Shown here piece after piece: positions 7,501-49,414 of a stretch of 64,000 bases of DNA (position 1 is its first letter; each line of letters opens with the position of its first letter). The notes below the pieces were generated by a model that worked only from the letters and a program-made list of their open reading frames with translations, was not told where the DNA came from and ran no database searches. The stretch comes from a virus (taxonomy: Duplodnaviria; Caudoviricetes), in the IMG/VR virus record IMGVR_UViG_3300028832_000102, positions 1-64,000 of that record. One strand, 5' to 3'. Position numbers and translations under genes: made by a program.

Positions 7501-9688
7501 TCCATGCCGCACAGTGCGAAGCACTTTCTATCACGGCAGAGAACTGCACCTGCTCGTCACCCTTGAACATCCTTAGTGCAACCGTCTTGACCGACGTATC
7601 GATAGTCTGTCCATATACGTTACAGTCGAACGCCACTGACGGCGGGTTAGCAGATACCGTATATCCGCTCTTGCCGTCTTTAACAACGTTGATGGGGGCA
7701 TTCTCCTTCAACACCACAGAAGTGTCGCTGGTATGCTTCAGACGTAGGGTGATGCCGACCTTTGCCGTCACGACAACCTCTGGTGCTATGCCATAGCACG
7801 GAACAGACGATGAGTCCTCGTCTGGATCTGCAGGCATATCGAACGGACCGCAAAGATGCCAGTCACTCTCATCGTCGATGCGGTATTCCGCGTAATAGTA
7901 GTCGCCAACCACGGGGTAGTCATGCGACGGCAGTATGTTGCCCGAACGCGTGTCTCCTTCCGTGCGGAAAGCCGTAACAACAATGCCGTCCGACACCACC
8001 GTTCCGTCCTCGTCGGCGTTGAGCACGCTGACGCTTGACACAATATCATATACAACGGCGTCGCTTCCGTAGTGATTCCAGATATGCGGGGTCGTGAAGT
8101 CTCCCCAATGGCCGCCTTCTTCACCAGACGAGGAGTCTGAACTGTCATCGTCGCGCATGTAGTCTCGGTAAGAACTGTACTCATACAGGTAGGTATCGTC
8201 AACGCCCTGCTGTTCGTCCCACCATCCTTCAGGAACCCATCCGTCCTGGTCCTTGTCGTCAGTCACATGACCGGCAGCGCCGTTGGGATTCACCTCGCCA
8301 TACGCTATGAGTGCAGGCAACGGATGTTCGCTGCTGGCATCTCCGAAGGTGATAGGCGTACGACTGCGCAGGAATATCCACTCACGCACCTTGCTATCCT
8401 CGCCGTCGCGCACAAATGCAATAGTAGTACGCGCGAGCTCTATCGCCACTTCCTCCGCTCCCGAACCAGAACCGCGTGTAAGACGCACGTTAAGGCTCTG
8501 CTGGGCATAGAAGGCGTCTATGCCTATCCGTGCCACAGCGACACTTGTTGCAGGACCGCTGAACTGCAGCGGCGTCCACACATCACCACTCAGGGGCGCA
8601 TAGCCAGCCGACAGTCCTGCGGCTGCCAGTGCAGCGTTGGTAAGCTCGGTCACCTCACCGCGTTGGTCGGTAGCCCTCACCCTGACCGTGACGCCGTCTT
8701 CAGGCGTGTATGTCTTTGTCTGGGGGTTGTAGCTGACAATGGCAGACGACAGAGCAAGTTCGTACTTCTCCCAGGTCTCTGCCATGATATTGATACCGAC
8801 AGTCGCCAGCGGCACGAGTTCTTCTTCCGATGAAGAACTGTCCGACGAGCTGCTCGAAGAGTCCCCTTCCGTGTCCACTCCCCATGCTGTAATCTGGAAC
8901 ATTGTGTTGACAGTGGCATTGAAATCGTCTTCCGCACCGCGTATATGCGACAGCAGTATGTTGCCCGACGTGCGGAAGGCGGTAGCCCACGTGCCGGTGT
9001 TCCAGGCATGGTCTGCAGCCACGTCGCCCGTGTTACGTACTATCTCCCAATGGCGGAAGCGCTGAATGTCCGTTCCCGTCCATCCTTCTACAAGGGTGGC
9101 AATGAGGAACAGCGACTTACCCCAGTACACATACGGTGTTGGACCTGCATCCTCATCGTCAATGGTGCATCCCAGTTCTATACGCAGCGGCAGCACGGAC
9201 GGGCTTATCTCCCACTCTGTGTTGTACTGATTCGTGCAAAGTATGCCAGTGTCAAACGTTACGGTGCGCAACCCGTTCTGAGGCAGCGACACGTCGCCCA
9301 GTCTCACGTACCAGTTGCCGTCATCTGTTTGCATGCCATCAATGTCGGCGATGCCGTCAGGTGTGATATACGGGTATTTATCCTCCCACTCCGTGCCTGA
9401 CAGCGTCTTCGGAGCAAAGACAAGATAGCCGTCGCCGTCACCGTTCTTGGGCAGGCGGGCATAGATGGTGTATGGCTTGGCGGAATCTGCCAAACGGCGG
9501 TTCCTGCCGGTCAGGGTCCATTCCTGATACTCGCCGTCAACAAAGTCAACGCCGGCCTTCGGCGAATAAACCCTTATCTTCGTATTTCGCAAGATATATA
9601 CCGCCAGGTCATTAGCGGATTCATTGGCATTGGGAACAATGCTAATGGCTGATGGTGCTATGTAGTGAACAATGGATGTACGTGGCAT
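4511..9688 (-). CDS. Large tail/host-specificity protein (~1725 aa)
   Basis: Very long ORF; GSGWRI..SKMEVDNLLVR and SYVEQTADQVRIGI segments typical of Bacteroidota phage tail proteins; start moved from 9718 to 9688 because the 9718 ATG overlaps the putative promoter. Confidence 0.7.
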   Translation of the reverse strand: MPRTSIVHYIAPSAISIVPNANESANDLAVYILRNTKIRVYSPKAGVDFVDGEYQEWTLTGRNRRLADSAKPYTIYARLPKNGDGDGYLVFAPKTLSGTEWEDKYPYITPDGIADIDGMQTDDGNWYVRLGDVSLPQNGLRTVTFDTGILCTNQYNTEWEISPSVLPLRIELGCTIDDEDAGPTPYVYWGKSLFLIATLVEGWTGTDIQRFRHWEIVRNTGDVAADHAWNTGTWATAFRTSGNILLSHIRGAEDDFNATVNTMFQITAWGVDTEGDSSSSSSDSSSSEEELVPLATVGINIMAETWEKYELALSSAIVSYNPQTKTYTPEDGVTVRVRATDQRGEVTELTNAALAAAGLSAGYAPLSGDVWTPLQFSGPATSVAVARIGIDAFYAQQSLNVRLTRGSGSGAEEVAIELARTTIAFVRDGEDSKVREWIFLRSRTPITFGDASSEHPLPALIAYGEVNPNGAAGHVTDDKDQDGWVPEGWWDEQQGVDDTYLYEYSSYRDYMRDDDSSDSSSGEEGGHWGDFTTPHIWNHYGSDAVVYDIVSSVSVLNADEDGTVVSDGIVVTAFRTEGDTRSGNILPSHDYPVVGDYYYAEYRIDDESDWHLCGPFDMPADPDEDSSSVPCYGIAPEVVVTAKVGITLRLKHTSDTSVVLKENAPINVVKDGKSGYTVSANPPSVAFDCNVYGQTIDTSVKTVALRMFKGDEQVQFSAVIESASHCAAWMNGSNLLVSVGQGWLHEDATYYTDKPSPYVSVGDVVYNADKEAVSTVSAVGNGYIEIDGVEGRFTAATNLSMHSLINPGRISVVVTSEEVSRNIIISVIGLRQAPPDEYLSKTHEDVAAEVIGFAKGLWVKAKELFGIDGEGNAKLNNIRGNNVTLSGMISAVRGIMSALQSPNFQQDDMNGSGWRITDTDENGHSKMEVDNLLVRMRFIANILEARKYVSLGGNYVYSPASSIIEQVDYYDANGDLLGYDTIKVPWLVRTIPMLSRKFYSKYRTIKRVGSVDMADVVKFRCWIKADDGTTKTINTWQVGMLARCQTMDVSETEGGTHTDANTGATGNRLYWRECVAKGQGLLPITDGLIHSYVDLSNASGHFLAGSDAPLPGDSIVCYGATVADYSHIIEIETVGSDAPAIKEYRGVGLPASGSSLPTFSTEGKRKTMISPASGNEFHAPRFVIETTSGDEELYNGHYQGHAVGFYDPATPANGDIKLKTFTAWSSSEVTHYVYNNGSWSSATDALGSYYISDADNHRYLCTSMGWKDIGLGEATKAFKLEVVGDVETAFAASTGMNYTQTGLFIRSSEQSMSRIQRIFGKNMILHSDTGEGWSGVVNDHVVDCDGADATPPSMHLLHGMKYVFSAKQADNCTVRITFTDGSTTTWISFLVSAMSYDSTLGRYYYVIDFMLDHFPNGAAATITLNYFAVDGIFFERVQMEAGQEPTEYDVTTVDEDISSYVEQTADQVRIGITNGLTNTGINIQTGEVEIQANKFSVIDSQGNPMLGMNNTTDEFAIAGKIHATDGLYRRMAFAYLGGKCRNADVDPFTGGLSNNIYIKATFTNDYDWSYEFIDETTALPDHEYSDWTGGGHSPGDIVTLNTTGWADYVLIKSYSSTGYELSGDHGLIIPQASHPKMRGRQIEIYSNEPISSNRRYKLEIVGNNGASLQFAKTYTIQSNGTIQPDGTPASLWFPLATGLKMVSVYTGVNDNWFWLCLTPIYTAQA

Positions 9689-15938: not shown

Positions 15939-16187
15939 TTATAATTGTCCTAACTCTTCTTTCATCTCCTGTATTCTGCTGTGCAGAGGGTTTATCACGT
16001 TTCCGCAGATAATTCCCCAGGCATGCCATGAACAGCCGTCTGGCTTTTTGTCTTTATTCGTTTTCCACGTCTGTTCCAGCGTATGCCATCCCGTCCATGC
16101 GCCTGTTGTTGTATAGCCCATGAGCCATTTGCCGTATGGTGTGCGCTTGTTAATGGTAACAGCGCCGCTCTTTGTTATAATCTCCAT
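15939..16187 (-). CDS. Hypothetical protein (82 aa)
   Basis: ORF with ACGATTATG start context. Confidence 0.6.
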   Translation of the reverse strand: MEIITKSGAVTINKRTPYGKWLMGYTTTGAWTGWHTLEQTWKTNKDKKPDGCSWHAWGIICGNVINPLHSRIQEMKEELGQL

Positions 16188-16224
16188 AATCGTTTTTGTT
16201 TTAGATGTTAAACTTTGTTTTTTG

Positions 16225-16256
16225 TTTGGTACATCCATCCGAAAGCGTTAATTTTG
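16225..16256 (+). promoter_or_regulatory. Bacteroidota housekeeping promoter driving a small RNA
   Basis: TTTG (16225-16228), 20 nt, TAATTTTG (16249-16256): consensus match. Confidence 0.75.
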
Positions 16257-16261
16257 CCGAC

Positions 16262-16394
16262 GCAATCCGATGGATTATTCAAGAGTCAGCCTTCGGGCTG
16301 TGGATTGAAACGAGCTTACGCTCACAAAATTTCTACTATTGTAGATTGCCGCGAGAAGCGGTATAAGCCCCGTCCCTCCACGGGGCTTTTTTTT
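16262..16394 (+). ncRNA. CRISPR-repeat-mimic small RNA (I-C-like repeat plus Cas12a repeat); candidate RNA anti-CRISPR
   Basis: GTCAGCCTTCGGGCTGTGGATTGAAAC (16285-16311) then AATTTCTACTATTGTAGAT (16328-16346), between a consensus promoter and the terminator aagccccgt-ccctcc-acggggctttttttt. Confidence 0.7.
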
Positions 16395-16400
16395 GTATTC

Positions 16401-17000
16401 TTACTCCCAGTCCACGATACGCTCATAGTTCGTGAGGTGACCACGTGGCGCACCATAGACGAACTGCGTACCCATTCTGCCGCCGACACTGATGGGCTGG
16501 TCGAGCTTGATGGTTGTGGCCGTCTTGCCGTCGCAGTCGTACTGGTTACACTGATAGCCGATGGTCATAGCAGGCAGGTGCCACAGTCCCCAGTTCTGCG
16601 TGTTTAGGTATCGCAGCAGGGTATAGACAGTCTCAGCATTGGTTTCCACTACATCCCTACCGTCAAACAGGCGGTGATAGTTATCTTCTACCATGCTTAC
16701 CGATGCAGTCTGCTGGCGTTCTCGCTCCGCATTGGCTTTGCGACGAATCTCCGCCTTGATGACGTTCAGCTCGGCAATCATAGCATCGATGTCCTCGACC
16801 TCCTCACACTGACTCAGCAGTCCGTCAATACCACCTGCAGTGATAATCAGACTGCCAGCATTAGGGAATAGGTGACCGTCCTTCTCCCAGTGGTCCATAT
16901 TCTTCAGGCTGAAATACTCACGGTAGATGTCGAGCGTACCGTTCTCGTTCTTCTCCACGCGGTAAATGACGCGCTTCGTTCTAAAAATCTTCGTTGCCAT
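16401..17000 (-). CDS. Hypothetical protein (199 aa)
   Basis: ORF with its own TATCTTTG promoter near 17042. Confidence 0.75.
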   Translation of the reverse strand: MATKIFRTKRVIYRVEKNENGTLDIYREYFSLKNMDHWEKDGHLFPNAGSLIITAGGIDGLLSQCEEVEDIDAMIAELNVIKAEIRRKANAERERQQTASVSMVEDNYHRLFDGRDVVETNAETVYTLLRYLNTQNWGLWHLPAMTIGYQCNQYDCDGKTATTIKLDQPISVGGRMGTQFVYGAPRGHLTNYERIVDWE

Positions 17001-47518: not shown

Positions 47519-48667
47519 CTAAAGCCGTGGGATTCTTGGGTGCTTACGCCCCCGCACGGTCGCCACAGCGGGCTTCCGCGTCTTACTGGGATTCCCCAAC
47601 GAGGCAATGCCCTGCCTCAGAATGTTGTTCGCAGCATGAAGGTCGCGGTCGTGATGGGCACCACAAACAGGACAGGTCCACGACCTTTCAAGCAACGATA
47701 GAGATTTATGAATATGACCACAGTCGCACAACTTGGAAGAAGGGAAGTAGCGGTCAATCTTCTTGACCGTCACGCCATAGCGAGGTGCAAGGTACTCCAG
47801 CTTTGCAATCATCTTGCCGTGGGCGAGGTCTTGCATCTTACGACCCCAGAGCTTCGTCATGCCCGTGAGCTGCAAGTCCTCGATGCAGATGATGTCGTAC
47901 TTGCGGCACAGCTTGTGTGCTTCCTCCCACTGCCAGTTGTCGCGCTGGTTGACGATGCGTTCCTCCACACGGTTCTTTGCGCGTCGTGCCAGTTTCCTGT
48001 GGTTGCTCCCTTCCACGCAGCGCGACAACTTGCGGTCGGCCTTCTTCTTGGCGTTCATTCCCTGCTTCAGGAAACGTGGCGACTGAATGCGCTTGCCGTT
48101 GGAGAGGGTCATGTACGTCTTCAGCCCGAAGTCGATGCCAACGGATGCACCATTATGTGTCTTTCCGATGGATTTTCCTTCGGCTTCGATACTGAGGACG
48201 ATGTAGTATTCTCCGAGCGGCGACCGCTTCACGGTCACGCCCTTAATCGCTCCCAATCCCACGTATGGACGGGAGAGCGAGAACTTATAGCGTTTCTTGA
48301 TTTTGTTGATGGTGATCACGTTTCCGTTCAGCGTGTAGCCACCCTGCTTGAACCTGAAGGACGTGAACCAGTCGGCCTTCTTGAACTTAGGCGGTCTCTG
48401 CTGTATATGCTTGAAGAAACGCTGGTAGGACAAGTCGAGCCTTTCCAGTATCTCCTGCACGGTCTGCGAGTGAAGGCGGCTGCTCTTGCCATACCAGCGT
48501 ACCCATTTGCCTTTGAGCCGTACCACGTCGATGTACTTATGATACATGCGGTAGTACCGCTTCTGCAACGCCAGCGCATGATTCCACACCCAAGCGGCCT
48601 CGCGCAGCATCGCGTCGAGGTGCTTGGTTTGCTTGCTCGTGTAGAGCTTGTACTTATAGGCTATCAT
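47519..48667 (-). CDS. tnpB: RNA-guided endonuclease TnpB (382 aa)
   Basis: RuvC I GIDFG, RuvC II IEDL, Zn finger CDCG..CPVCG, RuvC III DRDLHAANNI. Confidence 0.93.
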   Translation of the reverse strand: MIAYKYKLYTSKQTKHLDAMLREAAWVWNHALALQKRYYRMYHKYIDVVRLKGKWVRWYGKSSRLHSQTVQEILERLDLSYQRFFKHIQQRPPKFKKADWFTSFRFKQGGYTLNGNVITINKIKKRYKFSLSRPYVGLGAIKGVTVKRSPLGEYYIVLSIEAEGKSIGKTHNGASVGIDFGLKTYMTLSNGKRIQSPRFLKQGMNAKKKADRKLSRCVEGSNHRKLARRAKNRVEERIVNQRDNWQWEEAHKLCRKYDIICIEDLQLTGMTKLWGRKMQDLAHGKMIAKLEYLAPRYGVTVKKIDRYFPSSKLCDCGHIHKSLSLLERSWTCPVCGAHHDRDLHAANNILRQGIASLGNPSKTRKPAVATVRGRKHPRIPRL

Positions 48668-48688: not shown

Positions 48689-49189
48689 TTAATCAATCTG
48701 TGCGTGGCTGCTCAGGTCACTGTCGGAGTATCGGCTGAACATACTCAGGTCTTCGTCGTCGGCGGCATACTCTATGTCGCCGTCCTCCAGCTCCAGCTGG
48801 CACAATTCAGACACAGCAATGTCGCGCAGCCTTGTCTTTATGAGATTGTCGCCTCGCTTGACGTAAATTTCGGGTACACGGTCGTCTGGGTACTCCCACA
48901 TGATCTGCTGAAACACCCACTCGATGGCAGTCAAAGTGTAGTCACGTTTCAGCTTCGTAAACTCCACTTCCGGCATCATCTGTGCCAGCTCGCAGCGCAC
49001 GGAGTCGATGTGCTTGAAGTCAAAGTAAATCACCTGGGCCTGGACATTGCCGCCCACCTCTTTCACGTCCAGTCCGTAGAGGAACTTGCCGAAGTAATCT
49101 TTCAGCATCTTCTTGTAGTCGCGTCCGAGCGACTGCGGGGTTTTGATTCTTCTCATATCAATATTGTTATAGCAAATATGGGGCGGCAC
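48689..49189 (-). CDS. Cargo gene within the IS (~155-166 aa), unknown function
   Basis: ORF between tnpB and the tnpA remnant; acidic C-terminus. Confidence 0.65.
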   Translation of the reverse strand: MPPHICYNNIDMRRIKTPQSLGRDYKKMLKDYFGKFLYGLDVKEVGGNVQAQVIYFDFKHIDSVRCELAQMMPEVEFTKLKRDYTLTAIEWVFQQIMWEYPDDRVPEIYVKRGDNLIKTRLRDIAVSELCQLELEDGDIEYAADDEDLSMFSRYSDSDLSSHAQID

Positions 49190-49414
49190 TACGAGTTGCT
49201 ATGGCCAATATTGCAAAGCCACCGGGGTCTTTCGACTTACCGACTCGGTTCCGCCCCAATGGGGTTTATTCATTATTTGGCAGATACAAAAATAGCCACC
49301 TGTTGTGGCGGCATCGTCGTACCGCAATATTGTTTAAGCGCTGCAAAGTTAAGCAATTATTTTTATCCTTGCAAATTTTTCAGCAGAAAATTATATTATA
49401 TGTATCAAATCAAT

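Follow-up and report, generated by a model that had tools for sequence, protein, structure and literature searches.

A phage gene for a small RNA carrying type I-C and type V-A repeat mimics: a candidate two-headed RNA anti-CRISPR

Can one small phage RNA imitate the CRISPR repeats of two unrelated systems, and if it does, is it a decoy for both? The question is raised by a locus on the plus strand of a 64-kb window (the whole stretch of phage DNA analyzed here, part of a 128-kb virus record), for which the original prediction had inferred a bivalent decoy RNA directed against a class 1 and a class 2 CRISPR system. Phages are known to carry solitary repeat units, or Racrs, of which type I-C and V-A examples (RacrIC1 and RacrVA1-3) inhibit their systems (Camara-Wilpert et al. 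2023, PMC10651486).

The predicted transcription unit and its neighborhood

The unit at 16225-16394 runs from a promoter to a terminator (Table 1), and all of the letters that the original prediction had assigned to it were present at their coordinates. The claim that these elements define a ~130-nt plus-strand unit antisense to the surrounding genes held to the base, with transcription remaining inferred. The promoter pattern (TTTG, 20 nt, TAATTTTG) occurred 8 times in the window against 0.57 expected, which indicated that the phage uses promoters of the Bacteroidota type. Transcription is predicted to start near 16260-16264, without expression data; similarity to the nearest relative, L008, sets in at 16260 and reaches 85% over the RNA. 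With both the promoter and the terminator being predictions, we consider the locus to be a phage gene for a ~130-nt non-coding RNA whose expression is inferred.

Table 1. Features of the RNA gene and the flanking open reading frames, in positions of the window.
Feature	Position	Strand	Details
Bacteroidota-type promoter	16225..16256	+	-33 TTTG 16225-16228, 20-nt spacer, -7 TAATTTTG 16249-16256
5' leader hairpin (AAUCC / GGAUU)	16264..16276	+	Only other carrier is L008
Type I-C repeat mimic, 27 nt	16285..16311	+	GU overhang, 5-bp stem, UUCG loop, 11-nt 5'-handle sequence
Full-length type V-A (Cas12a) repeat mimic, 35 nt	16312..16346	+	Directly abuts the I-C mimic
Pseudo-spacer, self-folding	16347..16363	+	6-bp hairpin from the first base after the handle
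Intrinsic terminator	16365..16394	+	9-bp stem 16365-16388, 6-nt loop, T8 to 16394
99-aa ORF, unknown family	15939..16238	-	Homologue adjoins the RNA in L026
199-aa ORF, unknown family	16401..17000	-	Homologues near the RNA in L006, L249, L316
DarB-like antirestriction methylase-helicase, 1813 aa	17446..22887	-	phrog_10089 E = 1.6e-247; Helicase_C

Five hairpins lie between the promoter and the terminator (the leader, the I-C-like hairpin, a small hairpin at 16312-16323, the handle and the pseudo-spacer), and the whole RNA folded at -50.1 kcal/mol (z = -4.7), with no shuffled sequence being equally stable. The joint motif, consisting of the I-C 12-mer, 10-22 nt and the V-A handle, was found once in the window against 0.00 expected from 100 shuffles, and the I-C motif and the V-A motif each have a single occurrence in the entire 128-kb record. 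A comparison of the region with Rfam identified no family at threshold, the best CRISPR-DR match having E = 2. The absence of cas genes and of an array from the window, as claimed originally, also held: there were no array-like repeats in the 64 kb, and genes for Cas12a and Cas5d were absent from the whole 128-kb record. In most relatives the RNA either opens directly at the I-C-like unit or has a third repeat mimic in the place of the leader hairpin. The leader hairpin of the window RNA was itself considered as a third mimic and rejected, its resemblance to host Cas6-type and I-C repeats not being significant.

The three flanking ORFs in Table 1 are all on the minus strand, and the RNA gene is therefore antisense to its neighbors. 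The DarB-like gene, which is 1 kb from the RNA and has a homologue near the RNA of L007, represents an anti-defence context. Comparisons with Pfam, PHROG and PDB gave no informative match for the 99-aa and 199-aa ORFs or for the recurrent neighbors at other loci, apart from a DUF7841 protein and, in 18 loci, an integrase within ~2 kb of the RNA. Nor did these comparisons reveal any known Acr protein gene adjoining the RNA. Apart from the RNA, the 199-aa ORF and the DarB-like gene, the window copy and its surroundings shared nothing with the other RNA-bearing loci, and for the copy in Leyella the common sequence was limited to the 190 nt of the RNA. This near-exclusive sharing of the RNA between loci indicated that it is the RNA on which selection acts.

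These observations bear on the possibility that the RNA is a Cas-dependent phage sRNA with another job, in which Cas would be a maturation enzyme or sensor and the 3' hairpin-terminator piece, or the antisense overlap, would be the regulator. The antisense orientation of the gene is consistent with such a role. However, the RNA is retained at loci whose neighboring genes are different, so that a cis-antisense role cannot be the conserved one, and the 3' piece has no conserved seed-like sequence. We consider this explanation unlikely.

Two other features were observed elsewhere in the window. On the minus strand at 49176-49259 there is a match to the Rfam c4-2 RNA (42.2 bits; gathering score, 41). 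A Bacteroidota promoter pattern lies ~85 nt upstream of it (49344-49375, minus strand), and a 382-aa transposase-like ORF (47519-48667, phrog_506) is beside it; this match may represent a second small RNA gene. A 538-aa ORF at 33839-35455 on the minus strand had a reverse-transcriptase match (phrog_1423, E = 7.6e-19).

Host repeats and the conservation of the two mimics

Both mimics match repeats of type I-C and V-A arrays in Prevotellaceae. An uncultured Prevotella sp. (G001) was found to have cas12a (1523 bits) and a 17-repeat V-A array whose 36-nt repeat ends in the 19-nt handle of the RNA, in line with the earlier claim that Prevotella carry Cas12a, and the same genome also carries the RNA, alongside Cas5d and an I-C array of 18 repeats. 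The last 19 nt of the stretch at 16312-16346 had been claimed to fit the Cas12a crRNA handle, and they proved to be exact: 16328-16346 has the AAUU-UCUAC-loop-GUAGA-U form and is identical at 19/19 positions to array repeats in five genomes (G001, G111, G198, G039 and G067). The loop variants seen most often in the RNA are …ATTG… and …ATCG…, and the same two are the most frequent in host arrays. Cas12a is predicted to cut 5' of A16328, for which there are no processing data.

The remainder of the V-A mimic is composed of a 5' hairpin (16312-16323) and a linker (16324-16327), in the place of the ~16-17 nt of repeat that precede the handle in a Cas12a substrate. In 12 V-A arrays of the host family the 5' part of the repeat was mostly a hairpin of 3-4 bp followed by an AU-rich linker, and 16312-16327 matches these repeats in its hairpin-plus-linker build and not in its sequence. 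Because host V-A repeats mostly begin with a hairpin, we interpret the 16 nt between the two mimics as the 5' part of a full-length V-A repeat mimic and not as a spacer, which corrects the original prediction.

The sequence at 16285-16311 had been described as having the ends of type I-C repeats with a shortened stem, and this held when it was matched with host I-C arrays. The host I-C repeats of G001 and G003 (P. timonensis) are identical to the mimic over the final 12 nt, in the GTC and in the C-G pair that closes the stem. This stem has 5 bp in the mimic (C16287-G16300 to C16291-G16296), where it is followed by the 11-nt 5'-handle sequence at 16301-16311, versus 7 bp in the host repeats. 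Cas5c has been reported to require the base of the stem and U22-G23-G24 and not the loop or the 5' overhang, and one Cas5c is reported to tolerate changes downstream of the cut (PMC8524198). Apart from the shorter stem, the features of a type I-C Cas5d substrate are all present in 16287-16311. Cleavage itself is inferred, the predicted cut being after G16300, and there are no cleavage data.

When IMG/VR was first scanned for the I-C tail followed after 8-30 nt by the start of the V-A handle, 40 loci were identified, of which 38 had the whole architecture. Looser scans brought the total to at least 67 loci, which have 56 distinct cores and come from IMG/VR contigs and three Prevotellaceae assemblies (an uncultured Prevotella sp., Leyella stercorea and Prevotellamassilia timonensis). 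The RNA is not a one-off. A second correction to the original prediction is that it belongs to a modular family that includes three-mimic forms.

Within this family the whole V-A handle and the G that starts the V-A unit were invariant or nearly so. On the I-C side the UGG-AUU-AAAC tail was among the invariant or near-invariant parts, GTC preceded the stem in 51/54, the closing C-G pair was kept in 54/54, and the UGG after the stem had its U in 46/56 and its GG in 53/56. The stems, in contrast, change by compensatory substitution: the I-C stem exists in 11 variants, and each of its inner positions is occupied by three or four types of Watson-Crick pair; the V-A 5' hairpin has 7 covarying variants. 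An anchored I-C stem of at least 4 bp was present in 54/56 cores, compared with 15% of shuffled controls. RNAalifold on a MAFFT alignment recovered parts of two stems only; since differing loop lengths limited that program, the stems were parsed by anchoring them to the invariant motifs. The parts that do not vary (the V-A handle, the I-C stem base and the tail) are the parts contacted by Cas proteins, and the conservation pattern of the I-C-like unit corresponds to the reported requirements of Cas5c, by comparison with the cited paper (PMC8524198).

The conservation also speaks to whether the RNA is simply a functionless, decaying scrap of captured CRISPR arrays. Only the likeness to repeats favors this. 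Against it are the promoter and terminator of the RNA's own and 56 distinct cores with compensatory changes, invariant protein-contact motifs and unrelated flanks, and we regard the explanation as all but ruled out.

The I-C-like tail was less uniform. Among the 56 cores it was ATTGAAAC in 34, ATTTAAAC in 12, ATTCAAAC in 8 and ATTAAAAC in 2, so that ~40% of the family have C, T or A instead of the G in the ATTGAAAC tail; the window copy is canonical. In the five I-C-positive host genomes that were checked, this position was G with the exception of one terminal repeat. The variation in the family, set beside the G in host arrays, suggests that the I-C head is perhaps under a looser or a different constraint. 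Relaxed constraint and a deliberately defective handle are both possible explanations of the tail variants.

A related alternative is that only one head works, the RNA being a V-A Racr in which the I-C-like hairpin is a 5' stabilizing or processing element descended from an I-C repeat, or the reverse. The invariance of the V-A handle beside the variable tail position and short stem of the I-C unit is in keeping with this, as is the existence of single-head forms (an I-C-like head alone in L199, and many V-A-only units). However, GTC, the closing C-G pair and UGG, which are the reported Cas5c determinants, were kept across 11 covarying stems, host I-C systems target RNA-bearing phages (see below), and L170 has two I-C-like heads. 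A single working head is not excluded, and we think it unlikely.

Several other arrangements were observed among the relatives. Many of them (L006, L018, L030, L040, L064, L238, L244, L282 and others) have a third module upstream of the I-C-like unit, which ends ...CCTTTATGGAATTGAAA(C/T), also given as …GGAATTGAAA(C/T), and is followed by ~20 nt ending CTTCCGTTGAC. Arrays with near-identical 30-nt repeats (period ~65) occur in G004, G028 and G198, from the same bacterial family. As these genomes hold arrays of cognate repeats, the RNAs with a third module look three-headed (Cas6-type I-B/III, then I-C, then V-A). Chimeras were seen among L232, L248, L275 and L305, L269, L272/L295, L266, L170 and L199. 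In one such form a ...ATGGAATTGAAAC unit is fused directly to the V-A handle and a further repeat-like stretch follows. L269 is a three-unit form, the two I-C-like heads of L170 have tails one base apart and are accompanied by V-A, and the lone head of L199 has a Bacteroidota promoter.

The pseudo-spacer and the spacers of the hosts

The would-be spacer downstream of the handle had been claimed to fold on itself. This held for the window RNA, with its 6-bp hairpin, and hairpins at this position were found throughout the family: the 32 distinct pseudo-spacers, whose stem arms come in 15 different sequences, are almost all hairpins that begin at the first or second base, with an A-rich lead-in of variable length. 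In a contig from the same metagenome, the 16-nt self-paired sequence of the window's pseudo-spacer was observed before a terminator without a V-A handle in front of it (L357:3165-3180).

One explanation for the 23 nt after the handle is that they are a hijacked guide, or a one-spacer mini-array, turning the host's Cas12a on a rival phage or on a gene of the host. Mini-arrays carried by viruses are known (reviewed in PMC11656645). The 16-mer of the window's pseudo-spacer had 12 matches in IMG/VR, mostly in unrelated GC-rich contigs, of which none was TTTV-flanked and none exceeded 20/23 bases. A perfect TTTV-flanked target, which the original prediction had named as the result that would make the RNA a guide, was thus not present in IMG/VR. 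In addition, it is the hairpin that is conserved and not its sequence. The RNA does not meet the description of a virus-borne mini-array, in that its two units differ in type, there is no spacer between them, and the 3' pseudo-spacer has no PAM-flanked IMG/VR match. We consider the hijacked guide very unlikely.

A second explanation involves Cracrs. These viral RNAs resemble a crRNA, and their spacer forms at least 9 PAM-proximal bp with a cas or creT promoter (Liu et al., bioRxiv 10.1101/2024.10.29.618823). If the RNA were a guide of this kind, Cas12a would process it and then repress the cas12a promoter or some other gene of the host, to which the pseudo-spacer would pair by ~9-12 PAM-proximal bases. 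Viral V-A Cracrs share the layout (bioRxiv 10.1101/2024.10.29.618823), and G067 has a circuit resembling CreR. The pseudo-spacer of L051 has a 9-nt match ~200 nt inside the cas12a ORF of G001, the only such match in that genome, though with TTTT in the place of the PAM. Against this explanation, the 32 pseudo-spacers are different hairpins with covarying stems and no conserved seed, and a comparison of all 32 with six cas12a upstream regions found no TTTV-flanked seed match of 7 nt or more (0.32 expected). This comparison was confined to six cas12a loci, and the host of the window phage is unidentified. The "spacer" on the I-C side likewise had no match of 8 nt or more in the I-C locus of G001, and the viral pseudo-spacers bore no likeness to the CreR spacer of G067. 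A Cracr-like guide therefore also appears very improbable to us.

The CreR-like element of G067 (L329, G067:C64, ~8330-8500) has a Bacteroidota promoter, a solitary V-A handle that precedes the cas12a ATG by 79 nt, and a spacer, of which the first 11 nt match a TTTA-flanked site ~60 nt further upstream on the other strand. The sequence suggests that L329 is a host CreR-like element and that Cas12a is autoregulated in Prevotellaceae, which we infer.

The distribution of the two systems among hosts was uneven. Of the other genomes that carry the RNA, that of P. timonensis has I-C without V-A, and that of L. stercorea lacks both. In 201 sampled genomes of the bacterial family, V-A arrays were found in ~14 and Cas5d in 16, with both in 2; by species, ~7% of those sampled have V-A, ~8% have I-C, and few have both.

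Six different spacers from the two I-C arrays of G003 matched ten RNA-bearing phage loci at 91-100%, with mostly TTC or TTT in the flank (the I-C PAM side). These matches showed that host I-C spacers target RNA-bearing phages, and an arms race is visible. One P. timonensis I-C spacer (L371 spacer 29) matched five RNA-bearing phages (L009, L031, L032, L035 and L036); the PAM position reads ATC in four of them and TTC in the fifth, and the ATC may be a PAM escape. Matches were not found between the 153 V-A spacers and RNA-bearing loci, nor between 270 host spacers and the 128-kb record of the window phage, both being small samples. There was also no sign of self-targeting, as no host spacer matched the 80 kb surrounding the G003 copy of the RNA, or the G001 copy.

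A proposed two-headed decoy and its comparison with known systems

What has been shown is the sequence, the conservation of the family, the covariation, the match to host repeats and the targeting of RNA-bearing phages by I-C spacers. Every computational test that was able to refute the bivalent-decoy reading favored it, and the inference of the original prediction is in this sense supported by comparative evidence, with expression, Cas binding and inhibition being inferred. Counting against two heads are the I-C tail variants, the 5-bp stem, the lack of V-A spacer matches, the unidentified host and the lack of an adjoining Acr gene. On balance we lean narrowly, with a probability of about 0.55, towards the RNA being a two-headed RNA anti-CRISPR of the Racr kind with both heads acting; its transcription and processing, as well as binding and inhibition, are inferences. 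That at least one of the heads acts as an anti-CRISPR is likely, although there are no binding or inhibition data.

In the two-headed reading, the RNA would be transcribed early, from the Bacteroidota promoter of the unit. Where the host has Cas12a, that nuclease would bind the perfect 19-nt handle and cut 5' of it. Cas12a would then stay loaded with a targetless guide whose seed is locked in a hairpin, and in this way would be diverted from the crRNAs of the immune response. In a host with I-C, Cas5d would recognize the base of the stem and the UGG that follows and cut after the stem, and Cas5, Cas8c and Cas7 would assemble on the 11-nt handle and a structured RNA without the normal 3' repeat hairpin, giving aberrant, non-targeting complexes. 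Because most host species have one system only, a single RNA would serve the phage in hosts of either kind, or against both systems where a dual host is met, of which there are few.

A bolder reading, which is inferred and which we would not quite back, is that gut Bacteroidota phages carry modular, multi-headed RNA anti-CRISPRs. In these, class 1 decoys (I-C, and Cas6-type I-B/III in relatives) and a Cas12a decoy would be chained, the heads would be cut apart by the host's own Cas nucleases, and the hairpin pseudo-spacer would leave a dead Cas12a complex, so that one RNA would disarm whichever type the next Prevotellaceae host has. If the two-headed reading is true, repeat mimicry is modular and can be stacked across class 1 and class 2, and a mixture of CRISPR systems confronts the phages that infect Prevotellaceae, a bacterial family prominent in the gut and the rumen. 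Repeat searches based on identity would also under-count such RNAs. In practical terms, the RNA would be a very small, genetically encoded means of switching off Cas12a, and perhaps I-C editors as well, and invariant Cas-contact motifs together with covarying stems provide a search rule for more RNAs of this sort.

The claim that the combination is undescribed held within the literature searched, in which we found no description of a multi-type repeat-mimic RNA and only single-type Racrs and same-type Cracr arrays. The diagnostic strings of the family were absent from the part of the SRU table of PMC10651486 that was examined, and identity-based searches would tend to miss the family because the stems of its mimics are shortened or diverged.

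Among known systems, the layout of the RNA resembles that of a Cracr in having a repeat-like unit, a short spacer-like stretch and a rho-independent terminator, and multiple units per transcript are possible in both. Processing of a Cracr by Cas12a gives a 19-nt handle and ~21 nt, and the window RNA is laid out similarly. The units in one Cracr array, however, always address variants of one type (bioRxiv 10.1101/2024.10.29.618823), whereas the window RNA mixes class 1 and class 2 and has as its pseudo-spacer a hairpin without a promoter match. The RNA shares with the host CreR of V-A loci (bioRxiv 10.1101/2023.03.03.530964) a solitary V-A handle with its own promoter; CreR, in contrast, lies inside the cas locus and has a spacer matching its own promoter region, neither of which is true of the phage RNA. 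Another phage sRNA, rAcrIIA1, mimics a crRNA-tracrRNA chimera against Cas9 (bioRxiv 10.64898/2026.06.03.729762) and is likewise a phage RNA fusing two guide-RNA parts into one decoy. The two parts in rAcrIIA1 belong to the guide of one system, as opposed to the repeats of two unrelated systems in the window RNA.

The closest likeness of the RNA is to the Racrs, as it is phage-borne and stand-alone, mimics a host repeat, and is found outside an array and without cas genes. It meets the criterion of residing on a virus or plasmid, outside an array and away from cas, and that of resembling a host repeat in sequence and fold, by its 19/19 match to the V-A handle and by the GTC, closing pair and last 12 nt of the I-C repeat. 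The search of PMC10651486 retained matches without association to other (partial) repeats, and this criterion of being solitary is not met, since two units of different types abut at 16285-16346. The difference from a Racr is that the window RNA has two mimics of different classes in one transcript, and its relatives have two or three.
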